42,260 nucleotides of DNA from an uncultured Nitrososphaerota archaeon (GCA_964636085.1 CAZWPQ010000003.1:67916-110175); one strand, 5' to 3'; counted from the stretch's first letter, positions 20,679-29,701 are shown. The notes: generated from the letters alone by a model not told the origin. Made by a program: numbers and translations.

Positions 20679-21314
20679 TTGCTTTTTGGGCAAAGGAGTA
20701 AGGAGAAGAGAATATTGGAACGCGCCAAGAAGCTTAGAGACATGATTGAGCTAAGCGGGCCTCAACGCGTCGATATGGGGACAATCCGCCAGACACTAAG
20801 AGAAATAGCTGATGATGTTGCTCGGCTCTCAGAGATTGAGAGGGATAGACTAGCGAGACAGATTGATGATATTTTTGAGGAGAAAATAGCTATATTGCGG
20901 GGTTGGAGGGAGTCAAGAGTACGAAAAATTAGGAGCATGCTTAAAGAACTCTCCTTACTAAAGAAGGTTCCCCGGAACAAGTTTATACGGGTCAAAATGC
21001 TTGATAATCAAATTAAGTTGGATGATGCATTACTACATGCCTTGGAGAACATTAGGGACATTCTGGTGGATACCGTACAGAGGGGGGTGGATCCCGAAAC
21101 GGCTTGGAGCAAGGTTTATAGGGTCACAGAGGTTATTACTGGCTATGTTGAGGGACTCACAGAACGTGCTGAGGCCTATACCGAGCTTACTGAGGAAGAA
21201 ATATCCGAGGCAGAATTGGAGGAGCTCTCTACATCATATGGGATAAAGGAGGCTGAGGAGGCACCAAGTAAGGAGATAAGAAAGATGCTTGAAAAGTATG
21301 GTTTAGAGGAGTAG
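20679..21314 (+). CDS. Coiled-coil protein, possible divergent ESCRT-III/Snf7-like subunit
   Basis: N-terminal LFG plus basic helix, helical core, acidic C-terminus ending in an amphipathic EIRKMLEKYGL helix; first gene of the Vps4 operon. Confidence 0.4.
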   Translation: MLFGQRSKEKRILERAKKLRDMIELSGPQRVDMGTIRQTLREIADDVARLSEIERDRLARQIDDIFEEKIAILRGWRESRVRKIRSMLKELSLLKKVPRNKFIRVKMLDNQIKLDDALLHALENIRDILVDTVQRGVDPETAWSKVYRVTEVITGYVEGLTERAEAYTELTEEEISEAELEELSTSYGIKEAEEAPSKEIRKMLEKYGLEE

Positions 21315-21315
21315 T

Positions 21316-21903
21316 ATGGGGATAGGTGAGAAGCCCTATACCTATATGATGGACACGCTTAGGAAAATTATTAGAAAGGTTGAGGAAATAAGTACTGATT
21401 GGTGGTGGTTTGAGCAGGGATCAATGCCAGTAATCCAGGTTAGGAGGCTTGTAACAAATGGCGAAATAAAACTTGATTGGACGCCAAAGGTACCGGTCGT
21501 GCATGGATTAAAGATTATATATAACAACTTCGATAAGATTGGTGAAATACCCCAAGAAAAGCGCTTAGGTATAGCCATAAAATCTGCCCAGGATCTCTAT
21601 GCAGTGTTGCTTGCCGTAACATATATAATGGAGGCACATGATCTAGCCGAGAGGCTAAATAAATTCAAAGAAAAGTTATCAAGGATGCGTCCTGATGCCG
21701 TCGAGGTTTTTGTTGAAGAAATGCGGAGATTTATTAGCAGGCTCAGAGAAACACTTCTAAGCAACATAATGTCTTGGCCTAACGTGAAAAATGAGTTTGT
21801 GAAAATAGTTGAATCAATGATCAAGAAAACAGAAAGAATCCTGGGTGAGGGTATCCCTCGAGAGGTAGAAGAGGTTAAGAAAAAGGAACTTGTGGGTGCA
21901 TGA
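21316..21903 (+). CDS. Hypothetical helical protein, 'WW-x2-QG' family; paralogue of 29168..29701
   Basis: DWWWFEQG...VIQVRRL...WTPK aligns with 29168..29701. Confidence 0.7.
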   Translation: MGIGEKPYTYMMDTLRKIIRKVEEISTDWWWFEQGSMPVIQVRRLVTNGEIKLDWTPKVPVVHGLKIIYNNFDKIGEIPQEKRLGIAIKSAQDLYAVLLAVTYIMEAHDLAERLNKFKEKLSRMRPDAVEVFVEEMRRFISRLRETLLSNIMSWPNVKNEFVKIVESMIKKTERILGEGIPREVEEVKKKELVGA

Positions 21904-27219: not shown

Positions 27220-27834
27220 GTGTTGGTTATGTGCTTTGCATCAACAAAACCCAAGTTTAGTGAGAAGGACTATATAATGCCTCCAAGAGACCCAGATACA
27301 GTGATTTTCTATTATGAGATCGGCAAAAAGGATGTGAAGTGTTTTAGGGTCGCTGAATATGAGGATGCTTACATTATTTGTCCTAGTGGCGAAATTAAGC
27401 CCATTGGAAAGCCAGGATTTTATCAGATAATATCGATCCCAGCAAAAATTATATGGATTAGATCTAGTCGCTTTGTTCTATCGGTAGGTGTTCCTAGGGG
27501 GGTTCTGCCTGGGGGATTCGGTGTAAACGCTGACTTATCGCTGTATCTTCAATATCCAGAAATATTTATTGGAAATATTATAACTGCTGAAAAGCAAGGA
27601 AAAATATCTATTGATGATATTAGAAAGGAATTGAGAAAGTTGCTTGAAAACGCGGTTAGGAATCTTCAGATAACGCCTGAGATGGAGAGAAGAAAAATAG
27701 TCGACTTGGTACACGGCGAAATGAATAATCTTATATCTAGGACATGGTTGAATGGTTTCATTTGCGATGTTCAAAGTGTTGGTTTTTCTTTCGAATGTGA
27801 GTTGTCGAAATTGTTAGATGAACTTGCAAGGTGA
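27220..27834 (+). CDS. SPFH/Band-7-like (YdjI-type) protein
   Basis: FRVAEYEDAYII..GEI...KPGFYQI, IIWI, GFGVNADLSLYLQYPEIFI and IRKELRKLLENAVR..GFIC follow the SPFH pattern. Confidence 0.55.
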   Translation: MLVMCFASTKPKFSEKDYIMPPRDPDTVIFYYEIGKKDVKCFRVAEYEDAYIICPSGEIKPIGKPGFYQIISIPAKIIWIRSSRFVLSVGVPRGVLPGGFGVNADLSLYLQYPEIFIGNIITAEKQGKISIDDIRKELRKLLENAVRNLQITPEMERRKIVDLVHGEMNNLISRTWLNGFICDVQSVGFSFECELSKLLDELAR

Positions 27835-29171
27835 TAGCTATGAGTACTATCGTGAGGAGTGAGCTGGAATCATATATTAGCACCGAGCAGATGGTAATTT
27901 CAAAGAGACTAAGAGGCATTATCGCCGAGGCTATAAAGAATCGAGAGTATGATTTGAGCACAAGCCTAGAGGCGCTGGTGAGCTCGATTAGGATGTTTAC
28001 TCCATTAAAATCGTCGTATACTCGACCCATGGATTATATAAATGCTTTACGTTCCTATGCTCTAGCGTTGAGTATAATTAGCGAGATGCTTGGGGAAGTG
28101 CATATAGGAAAAGATGTAATAGATCTCTGCAAGAGAATTCTAGACTTGGCAAAGGAGGGGCTTCCAGTAGGGAAAATTGCAGATGGTGCACGGGAGTTAC
28201 TGTCGGGAATGGGCGAGGCAGGAAATAAGATATTCATAAATGGTTGCAGAAAATACGTAAATATACTGATTGGAAAAGTTAAGGAGTTGGATCCGCAAGA
28301 GCTTCAGATAATCAAGGAGACGGTTAAGGAAATAATAGGTCATGTTGAAAGGCCCTATGCTAGAATCTCTGACATCTCCAGAATTTTAGGTACAAAAGAA
28401 AAGGATCTCCTGTCAATATTAAAACGCATAGCGGGTAAGGATCCAAATATTATTGTTACAAAATCTATAATCACCATAAAGGACAAAATGAAGGATTATC
28501 TTGAGAAGAGAATAAGGGAATCCCATTATATGCTCATAGGTGATCTTGCAAGAGAATGGAGCGTAGATATTGGTGATGTCTTGGAGGTGCTTGGAGAGGT
28601 ATCAGATATATACCCTGGTCTAGAAGTATTTGAGGGTATTGTTATATCCACAATGAAAAGCCTTTCAGATTACTTTGTTAGACTCGTAGACGATGAAATG
28701 GTGACGTCTACTCGTTTCATAGCCACGAAAATGGGCGTGAGAATAGATGCCTTAAGGAAGATTCTGGTAAGATTACATAAATATTCTCCTGATATAATAA
28801 TGGGTGATTCAGAAATTGTTGCACATAGACAGAAAATTTGTGATTGGTTAAGATCGATAATTGGTGACAGAGCCAAGGTATATGTGGAGGAATTCTCTGG
28901 AAGGTTGGGTGTCAGCACTAAGGTTATGAAGAGATTTATTGAAGACATAGCACGCATGTATGGTGAGTTTGTCCTCGCGAAGAATGAGCTTATATATGTC
29001 CCTAATCTTAGCAGAAACATATTGTCAGAAATCACGTCTAGAAAAGAAAGCTCGGAGGTTAGGGATATAATAAAGAAACATCCAGACGCTGTTGAGGCCG
29101 AAATTTTCAACAATATCAACAAGATATTAAAGGAGTTTGAAGAGAAAATATCGAGAGGGTCGGTAAAATGA
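27831..29171 (+). CDS. Protein with about four tandem winged-helix-like repeats
   Basis: Repeats ARISDISRILGTKEKDLLSIL, MLIGDLAREWSVDIGDVLEVL, TSTRFIATKMGVRIDALRKIL and VYVEEFSGRLGVSTKVMKRFI, each followed by a short beta-hairpin. Confidence 0.6.
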   Translation: MIAMSTIVRSELESYISTEQMVISKRLRGIIAEAIKNREYDLSTSLEALVSSIRMFTPLKSSYTRPMDYINALRSYALALSIISEMLGEVHIGKDVIDLCKRILDLAKEGLPVGKIADGARELLSGMGEAGNKIFINGCRKYVNILIGKVKELDPQELQIIKETVKEIIGHVERPYARISDISRILGTKEKDLLSILKRIAGKDPNIIVTKSIITIKDKMKDYLEKRIRESHYMLIGDLAREWSVDIGDVLEVLGEVSDIYPGLEVFEGIVISTMKSLSDYFVRLVDDEMVTSTRFIATKMGVRIDALRKILVRLHKYSPDIIMGDSEIVAHRQKICDWLRSIIGDRAKVYVEEFSGRLGVSTKVMKRFIEDIARMYGEFVLAKNELIYVPNLSRNILSEITSRKESSEVRDIIKKHPDAVEAEIFNNINKILKEFEEKISRGSVK

Positions 29172-29701
29172 GCTATGGCAAAGTGCAACTCGAAGAATTG
29201 GCGATAAAGCTAAGCAAGATAAAGGACGCGCTAACATATGAACTCCCCGAATTTTGGTGGTTATCACAGGGTGAAGAGGCTGTTGTGATAGTCAGGATGC
29301 TTAAAAAAGAAAAAAAACTAAGAGCATTAGAGACCCCTAAACTGACATTGAAAGCAGCGATAAAGGTTGTGATAGATAATATAGACCTAGCGAAAAAACT
29401 TAAGTCTAAAGAGTTTTACCAAGCAGTTAGAATAATCGAAGAAGATATTTCCAACATAGTCGATATCTATTCTAAAATAAAGGAGGCTCATCAGGTCGTC
29501 AAGAAAGCCGAAAACTTGAAGCGGTATATATCGAAATCAAATCTACACGTAGACAAAAAGGAGGAGTATAAGCGGATGCTTAATGAGGTAATAAAGTGGA
29601 TAAGAGAGATATTCGCTACGAACCCAAGAGAATGGGAAAGCAGGAAGGGTTTCTTTGAGAGAATCATATCGAAAATTGAGAATGAAATCTCAGAACAATA
29701 A
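29168..29701 (+). CDS. Hypothetical helical protein, 'WW-x2-QG' family; paralogue of 21316..21903
   Basis: EFWWLSQG...VVIVRML...ETPK...IKEAH...W; ATGA overlap with the upstream gene. Confidence 0.7.
   Translation: MSYGKVQLEELAIKLSKIKDALTYELPEFWWLSQGEEAVVIVRMLKKEKKLRALETPKLTLKAAIKVVIDNIDLAKKLKSKEFYQAVRIIEEDISNIVDIYSKIKEAHQVVKKAENLKRYISKSNLHVDKKEEYKRMLNEVIKWIREIFATNPREWESRKGFFERIISKIENEISEQ

Follow-up and report, generated by a model that had tools for sequence, protein, structure and literature searches.

Asgard archaea are the group nearest to complex cells. Their canonical ESCRT system comprises, besides ubiquitin genes, ESCRT-IIIA/B, Vps4, Vps22/25 and Vps23/28 (Makarova et al. 2024 PMC10936438; Souza et al. 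2025 PMC11804906), and the Asgard Vps4 proteins have been described as forming a single clade with eukaryotic Vps4, except for three Hodarchaeota outliers that have no ESCRT neighbours (PMC11188069). The subject of this work is an operon of ten genes (positions 20679-29701) in a stretch of 42,260 nucleotides from an uncultured archaeon (GCA_964636085.1 CAZWPQ010000003.1:67916-110175), the whole of which is called the window below. The initial annotation, made from the sequence alone, took cdvABC and the Asgard ESCRT loci for the only known archaeal arrangements; this was too narrow, since euryarchaeal ESCRT loci of the Main, Meth_adaptin and Halo_adaptin types have been described, with SPFH, winged-helix (wH), beta-propeller, Zn-ribbon and adaptin-appendage proteins (Makarova et al. 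2024, PMC11188069). Halo_FHA and Thermoplasmata are further clades named in that study. The central proposal of the initial annotation stood up: ESCRT-III and a MIT-AAA ATPase form a conserved system here that brings its own adaptors and membrane protein and is distinct from Cdv as well as from the canonical Asgard ESCRT. No paper describing the operon was found in a search that left most subscription journals outside.

All ten open reading frames (ORFs) lie on the plus strand. The successive intergenic distances were computed as 1, -4, 3, 1, 0, 9, 3, -4 and -4 nt, in agreement with the compact, co-oriented arrangement (gaps of at most 9 nt, or overlaps) that had been claimed. This series depends on the start of gene 5, which was set at the ATG at 23668 and not at the upstream TTG at 23617, because the homologues begin at that ATG. 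Purine-rich stretches resembling Shine-Dalgarno sequences precede several of the genes, and the G+C content of the window is flat (approx. 0.39-0.42). The AAA gene (gene 4, 22485-23666) comes directly after the ESCRT-III-like gene (gene 3, 21900-22481), as had been noticed at the outset. In the ten proteins two features alone passed the Pfam cut-offs, the AAA domain (gene 4) and the FG-GAP repeats (gene 7).

The product of gene 3 gave no match to Pfam Snf7 and none to the Pfam family of PspA. When the profile of its family (41 sequences) was compared with canonical Asgard Snf7 by hhalign, 123 columns were aligned with P 90% and E 1.5e-6. The same profile pulled out canonical Snf7 genes located beside canonical Vps4 and ESCRT-II genes, with E-values down to 7e-10. 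The AlphaFold2 model consists of a long hairpin followed by further helices (residues 10-44, 51-90, 96-136, 138-151 and 154-171), and the protein has a basic N-terminus (+11) and an acidic C-terminus. The best structural match of the model was the Asgard ESCRT-IIIB filament 9ftl (Z 9.7), and Snf7, CHMP4B, PspA, CHMP2A-3, CHMP1B and IST1 were also among the top matches. Foldseek returned no match for this model at E <= 0.001; in the Atlas the best structure was Snf7 (TM 0.54). A feature search of the Atlas with gene 3 ranked bacterial clusters first. Since profile homology, predicted fold and charge pattern come together, the gene 3 product is regarded as a divergent ESCRT-III subunit of the Snf7/CHMP superfamily, lying beneath the detection limit of Pfam Snf7, and the fold on which the original assignment depended was recovered by profile and model alike. 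As such it would be expected to polymerise on membranes and deform them.

Gene 1 (20679-21314) probably encodes a second ESCRT-III-like protein, as judged from profiles. Its core was aligned with the gene 3 family by hhalign (P 34%, E 4e-4) and matched canonical Snf7 weakly (E 1e-3 to 3e-3). A helical hairpin is added at its N-terminus, its acidic tail closes with a conserved MIM1-like helix (consensus KLLEKY), and its charge runs +4/+5/-13 from N to C. A gene 1-like gene stands beside the ATPase gene in nearly every cassette seen.

The gene 4 product (393 aa) has a MIT N-terminus and one AAA module (Pfam AAA E 5e-35; Vps4_C weak) with intact Walker A and B motifs and a KWLG pore loop. Pfam MIT itself gave no match, and the N-terminus was aligned with the MIT domain of canonical Asgard Vps4 with P 96% and E 7e-9. 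Among the NCBIfam models, CDC48 scored 233 bits and CdvC 202 bits, both under their cut-offs (650 for CdvC). The second region of homology (SRH) is of the p97 type: RAGR here and RPGR in the family, against the short meiotic-clade form RRRF in all canonical Asgard Vps4 proteins examined. Approximately 32 close relatives form a family set off from Cdc48 by a gap in score. In the phylogenetic tree this family is a clade (100/100), the canonical Asgard Vps4 proteins are a separate one (100/99), and both fall among the single-domain AAA proteins (97/95) and not with Cdc48 D1/D2. The gene 4 family is weakly sister to the Main-like loci (81/40). CdvC, eukaryotic Vps4, katanin/spastin, PAN and the Meth_adaptin and Halo_adaptin ATPases were left out of the tree; its outgroup loci came from a metagenome scan with the ATPase alignment, which itself returned only generic AAA proteins. 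In the approximately unbiased (AU) test a union with canonical Vps4 was not rejected (p-AU 0.35).

By the criteria of Makarova et al. 2024, a MIT domain and ESCRT neighbours (PMC11188069), gene 4 is a Vps4 in the broad sense, being a single AAA module with a MIT domain beside ESCRT-III. Within the sampling of a tree without CdvC and eukaryotic Vps4, it is not an orthologue of canonical Asgard Vps4. Thus the Vps4-type kinship expected for the ATPase held at the level of the single-domain group, and not at that of the canonical Asgard clade. It is possible that the three Hodarchaeota outliers are members of the gene 4 clade seen without their context. The protein was rejected as a plain Cdc48 fragment, since it has one AAA module and a MIT N-terminus and falls outside D1/D2 in the best tree. 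The IetAS defence system was likewise rejected, the operon being without an S8 protease and the IetA score far under those of CDC48 and CdvC.

Gene 5 (23668-24810) models as a three-domain adaptor (AlphaFold2, mean predicted local distance difference score pLDDT 88.8) with a SNAP-like solenoid (approx. residues 1-175), an appendage/TBP-like platform (approx. 190-290) and a Vps28-C-like four-helix bundle (approx. 292-380). The TPR solenoid is closest to gamma-SNAP (Z 12.3), and Sec17/SNAP topped the Foldseek list, in line with the SNAP-like protein first predicted. The platform matched the beta-adaptin appendage 2mj7 (Z 9.2, root-mean-square deviation, rmsd, 2.5), while the best match of the bundle (292-380) was the C-terminal domain of yeast Vps28, 2j9u (Z 10.9, rmsd 2.4, 88 of 94 residues). 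The idea of Vps28 came from the sequence, ahead of folding, and the profile of the Asgard Vps28 C-terminus matched gene 5 weakly (E 0.06). Combinations of Vps28-C, appendage and TPR have been described in Asgard multidomain ESCRT adaptors (Makarova et al. 2024). Gene 9 (27831-29171) encodes an N-terminal helical domain followed by winged-helix repeats, several in the host genus and apparently one in two other loci, L140 and L141. Pfam EAP30 did not match it, whereas canonical Njordarchaeales Vps22/25-like proteins did by hhalign (P 81%, E 1.2e-5; another comparison P 58%); a wH match this strong is still unspecific. With a probable Vps28-C-like bundle in gene 5 and possibly Vps22/25-like winged helices in gene 9, the opinion that the locus has no ESCRT-I/II-like parts had in part to be given up.

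Genes 2 (21316-21903) and 10 (29168-29701) belong to no described family and are paralogous (phmmer E 1e-12), so that the reported duplication is real. Gene 2 is helical and carries a WWW-x-x-QG motif; it gave no Pfam match and no usable Atlas hit, and neither paralogue matched the Vps28, Snf7 or ESCRT-II profiles. In distant cassettes there is a single, longer gene 2 homologue with a C-terminal extension (E 2e-4 to 5e-4). Gene 6 (24811-25485) has no Pfam match, is conserved and encodes a polytopic protein of no described family with 5 hydrophobic segments (5-6 in homologues), so that the seven transmembrane segments first counted are not supported. The other nine proteins have none; it is the only membrane-spanning product of the operon and a candidate anchor. 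In gene 7 (25495-27216) both domains named earlier, the FG-GAP beta-propeller (Pfam E 6e-8) and the Zn ribbon (Zn_ribbon_3, E 1.5e-3), were found again, together with four invariant Cys, a helical/coiled-coil region and one TPR-like unit, TPR matches being seen in the L140 homologue. It is a candidate cargo receptor. Gene 8 (27220-27834) probably encodes a soluble SPFH/Band-7-like protein. Here the original assignment held in part: a weak Band-7 signal appeared in two homologues only (Band_7 E 0.023, Band_7_1 E 0.084), while gene 8 itself had no Pfam hit and a PDB sequence search with it returned nothing.

The ten genes occur in identical order in three further genomes of the genus (loci L007, L008 and L011), i.e. 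in four genomes with the present one, therefore the operon is not a chance arrangement. At L009 seven of the genes are present up to the contig end. All ten are adjacent in the Njordarchaeia genome GCA_052585085.1 (L140), and nine or ten in L141 and L138, with blocks 1-5 and 6-10 reshuffled, so the gene set is kept together across Njordarchaeia even when rearranged, as the proposal of a dedicated system demanded. An artefact or chance assembly was rejected, the operon being conserved in many assemblies, and so was contamination, as it is found in 5/5 genomes of the genus with uniform G+C. Strong matches to the gene 3 profile were found in 14 of 400 Asgard genomes, from about ten families; in these counts relatives are not independent and genomes are incomplete. 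In the distant cassettes gene 3 is retained in one or two copies, along with the ATPase gene, a gene resembling gene 1 and, usually, one resembling gene 2. At one such locus, L118, an SPFH-like gene is joined by candidate counterparts of genes 5 and 9. Since gene 9 did not match the 650-aa L118 protein and gene 5 matched its counterpart only with E 0.01, these are counterparts by position and build only. Canonical Snf7 was present in all five distant carriers tested and also in G008, and the cassette coexists with canonical ESCRT in G008, G017, G051, G112, G139 and G170; thus the operon is mostly a second system.

The host is a heat-loving Njordarchaeales Asgard archaeon, whose order was sampled with 14 genomes within the Asgard phylum. 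The nearest ATPase loci are in the metagenome-assembled genomes Njordarchaeota GB_136, B13_G17 and B6_G17 and Crenarchaeota JZ-1.bin_83. The JZ-1 genome has an identical ATPase across assemblies GCA_024720815 to GCA_024720955, a run neighbouring GCA_024720975.1, the type material of Panguiarchaeum symbiosum. Panguiarchaeum was reported to have lost Vps4 and Snf7 (Huang et al. 2025, PMC12411855). Pfam Snf7 and canonical Vps4 are likewise lacking from the genus of our host, and we infer with high confidence that it is Panguiarchaeum. This concerns five incomplete genomes (75-83% complete; the host genome, G000, 83%), in which Snf7, EAP30, VPS28 and CdvA gave no match over the cut-off and canonical Vps4 was not found. 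Pfam Snf7 is present in 0/5 of them versus 7/7 of the sister family, and full Vps28 with the steadiness box (Pfam VPS28) was found in none of the 14 genomes of the order, against 21 of 27 other Asgard genomes. The ATPase search in G000 returned two ordinary Cdc48s besides gene 4 and no PAN-like protein (genome 83% complete). A 554-aa frame at G000:C52:3564-4028 gave a weak ESCRT-II-like winged-helix match (E 4e-6). A tubulin/FtsZ-family gene is present in 5/5 genomes and canonical ESCRT and CdvA were not found in them, therefore cell division in the genus is probably FtsZ-based, as argued for Asgard.

Taken together, we consider it very probable that the operon encodes a membrane-remodelling ESCRT-III/ATPase machine of some kind. 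We lean, with considerably less assurance, to a diverged, self-contained ESCRT pathway which buds vesicles carrying chosen or damaged membrane proteins. In such a pathway the membrane would be bent and cut from the cytoplasmic side at selected sites, marked by the gene 6 membrane protein with a gene 8 SPFH-like scaffold. Cargo would be bound by the gene 7 propeller and by the solenoid and platform of gene 5; the same accessory domain types have been tied to protein sorting (Makarova et al. 2024). The Vps28-C-like bundle of gene 5 and the winged helices of gene 9 may act as ESCRT-I/II-like links, with the gene 2/10 pair possibly forming a stalk, and these links would nucleate a filament of gene 3 and probably gene 1. 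The MIT domain of the ATPase may then grip the ESCRT-III tails, pull subunits out and recycle the filament. All these interactions and the physiological role are proposed by analogy with eukaryotic and Asgard ESCRT. In most Asgard carriers this appears to be a second system beside canonical ESCRT, and in the host genus the sole remaining one. The further proposal is evenly balanced in our estimate: that it is a second, undescribed Asgard ESCRT lineage with its own ESCRT-III, a p97-finger Vps4-type clade, ESCRT-I/II-like adaptors and a membrane anchor, which predates or parallels the lineage inherited by eukaryotes and replaced canonical ESCRT in the genome-reduced, probably host-dependent Panguiarchaeum.

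Several observations weigh against the budding pathway. The structural matches of gene 3 tie with unrelated helical hairpins. The gene 5 domains are each common folds with middling Z-scores, and its bundle ties with other four-helix bundles, e.g. the CheA HPt domain (Z 10.3), the identity to Vps28 being 9%. The assignments of genes 1, 8 and 9 are weak to moderate. Grouping of the ATPase with Cdc48 D2 was not rejected by the AU test (p-AU 0.09), which also tempers its Vps4 affiliation. Several distant cassettes lack genes 5-9 and have an S8 protease instead, therefore cargo sorting is not part of the conserved core.

In the window the operon is followed by deoC (29726-30403), which is on the plus strand here and inverted in L007, L008 and L011. 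Since its orientation flips between relatives, it was placed outside the operon. A block of plus-strand genes at 30540-34619, possibly linked to the operon, contains two unknown genes, a JAB protease (Prok-JAB E 7e-5) and a ThiF/E1 enzyme (ThiF E 2.5e-27). The second unknown gene carries an E2-like HP..ICLG stretch, which makes it a candidate E2; a PDB sequence search with it returned nothing. By its gene content this block looks like a prokaryotic ubiquitin-like conjugation system. It adjoins the operon in L007 and L011 and partly in L008, and was not seen beside it in L138, L140 and L141. The view that the locus has no ubiquitin link is therefore not supported, as JAB and E1 genes lie immediately downstream in the genus; their tie to the operon is putative. 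Upstream (15619-20395) lie three unknown genes (534, 534 and 342 aa), kept beside the operon in L007 and L011 with the first one inverted; two of them look like secreted or membrane-anchored beta-sandwich proteins. A region of approx. 2.2 kb at 39488-41748 has no ORF of 80 aa or more, and RNA genes or repeats are possible there.

Around the cassettes of other genomes further genes were seen. A second, independent ubiquitin-like neighbourhood is found in G139: the core cassette is immediately preceded there (L036:6471-9402) by genes for a ThiF E1, a UFC1-like E2 (Pfam UFC1 E 6e-10) and a JAB protein. In four distant lineages the cassette comes with an S8 subtilase that looks cytoplasmic (L010:3617-5251, L036:14221-15891, L120:13308-15038 and L122:12440-14185; Pfam-confirmed for the first three). 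Paired DO-GTPase-like genes (L119:7181-9047, L120:7428-9124, L122:6631-8304) and two proteins of 1000-1300 aa are encoded divergently from the cassette in three genomes, and a STAND-like NTPase/TPR gene lies beside or within the operon at L138:4556-6451, L140:1047-2807 and L141:1-1081. At L125:645-6586 (G145), possibly a hybrid locus, a gene 3-like gene adjoins one for a Vps4 of the canonical clade; an EAP30 protein, a gene 2-like protein and two short proteins resembling ESCRT-III are encoded there too. Metagenome contigs, some apparently from gut bacteria, have Snf7/PspA-like genes adjoining MIT-like AAA ATPase genes (L106:5403-7316, L109:871-2104, L038:9701-19508, L039 and L062).

The SPFH-like partner and the membrane protein recall Psp operons (PMC11237479), and this suggests a membrane stress or repair system like PspA/Vipp1 plus SPFH, in which the filament seals or sheds damage and the accessory proteins sense it. 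Such a function would suit a genus reported to be without lipid biosynthesis genes (PMC12411855), where membrane integrity may matter, and the usual coexistence with canonical ESCRT. However, cargo adaptors are where propeller, appendage-like and Vps28-C-like domains are typically met, and no stress regulator is visible in the operon. We regard repair as unlikely, although it is the strongest of the alternatives.

The patchy occurrence of the cassette, and the vicinity of distant copies to S8 subtilases, DO-GTPases, STAND/TPR NTPases and E1/E2/JAB genes, would also be expected of a horizontally spread conflict or anti-virus module, whose ESCRT-III polymers act on the membrane by barring entry, removing infected parts of it or killing the cell, and which was domesticated in Panguiarchaeum. 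Against this, all five genomes of the genus carry the operon at a constant place in the chromosome, and its G+C is like that of the host. None of the ten genes has an effector domain, the PADLOC matches are generic (IetA 102 bits versus CDC48 233) and the subtilases are weakly IetS-like. Thus this explanation seems improbable, more so than repair.

Clearly less probable again is that the ATPase derives from Cdc48 and works as an unfoldase, pulling proteins out of the membrane with the help of adaptors, the ESCRT-III-like proteins being regulators or decoys instead of filaments. The p97-type SRH, the best-scoring outside matches (Cdc48/VAT), the unrejected D2 grouping and the nearby JAB/E1 genes agree with it. 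On the other hand, MIT takes the place of the double-psi-barrel N-domain of Cdc48, the ATPase gene always adjoins an ESCRT-III-like gene, the Main-clade-like locus L038 likewise has RPGR, and the genome already holds two ordinary Cdc48s. Least likely of all is a cell-division machine analogous to Cdv, for although this is the only ESCRT-III/Vps4 pair found in the genus and archaea have recruited ESCRT for division on at least two occasions, all five genomes have the tubulin/FtsZ-family gene, CdvA is absent over the cut-off and most carriers elsewhere treat the cassette as optional.

Such a second Asgard ESCRT clade would have several implications. Two survey claims would change, that of one Asgard Vps4 clade (PMC11188069) and that of the loss in Panguiarchaeum (PMC12411855): the canonical genes seem lost in the genus, yet a divergent system persists which escapes Pfam Snf7 and MIT. 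The motifs of the ATPase are intermediate between Cdc48 and Vps4, which bears on the origin of Vps4, and gene 5 would unite types of domain that serve apart from one another in eukaryotes, in SNAP, adaptin and ESCRT-I. Being a thermophile ESCRT encoded by one operon, the system is suited to reconstitution and cryo-electron microscopy.

Compared with known systems, the operon shares with the Cdv system of TACK archaea (CdvA-CdvB-CdvC) an ESCRT-III gene directly before a MIT-AAA gene. It differs in the lack of CdvA, in a gene 3 without wH tail, in the FtsZ-family gene of its host and in the ATPase score far below the CdvC cut-off (202 versus 650 bits). Canonical Cdv was rejected, as no CdvA was found in the operon, as had been noted initially, or over the cut-off in the five genomes. 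With the PspA/Vipp1 envelope-stress operons (Ravi et al. 2024, PMC11237479) it has in common an ESCRT-III-superfamily protein with SPFH-like and membrane partners, but gene 3 is tied to Snf7 and has no match to the Pfam family of PspA, and a dedicated MIT-AAA ATPase is present here. The euryarchaeal systems likewise combine ESCRT-III, a Vps4-like ATPase, wH, SPFH, Zn-ribbon, beta-propeller, TBP/appendage-fold and membrane proteins in FtsZ-bearing hosts. The operon, whose hosts are Asgard archaea, is without their Cas2-like arCOG08177, kinase/phosphatase, GOLD, Ig-appendage, ProX and CetZ; conversely, neither SNAP-like or Vps28-C-like domains nor the gene 2/10 pair have been described from the euryarchaeal loci. 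By analogy it may resemble these systems in its working, without their signature genes. No Njordarchaeia were seen among the Makarova 2024 entries that the comparison covered. Canonical Asgard ESCRT has the same adjoining ESCRT-III and MIT-AAA ATPase genes and a wH protein, and Vps28-C/appendage/TPR combinations are described in Asgard multidomain proteins. In contrast to it, the ATPase of the operon forms a separate clade with RPGR and not RRRF, its ESCRT-III misses Pfam Snf7, no full Vps28 was found, and one compact operon also encodes a membrane protein, an SPFH-like and an FG-GAP protein and two paralogues of no described family. The operon is thus apparently an undescribed second Asgard ESCRT system.

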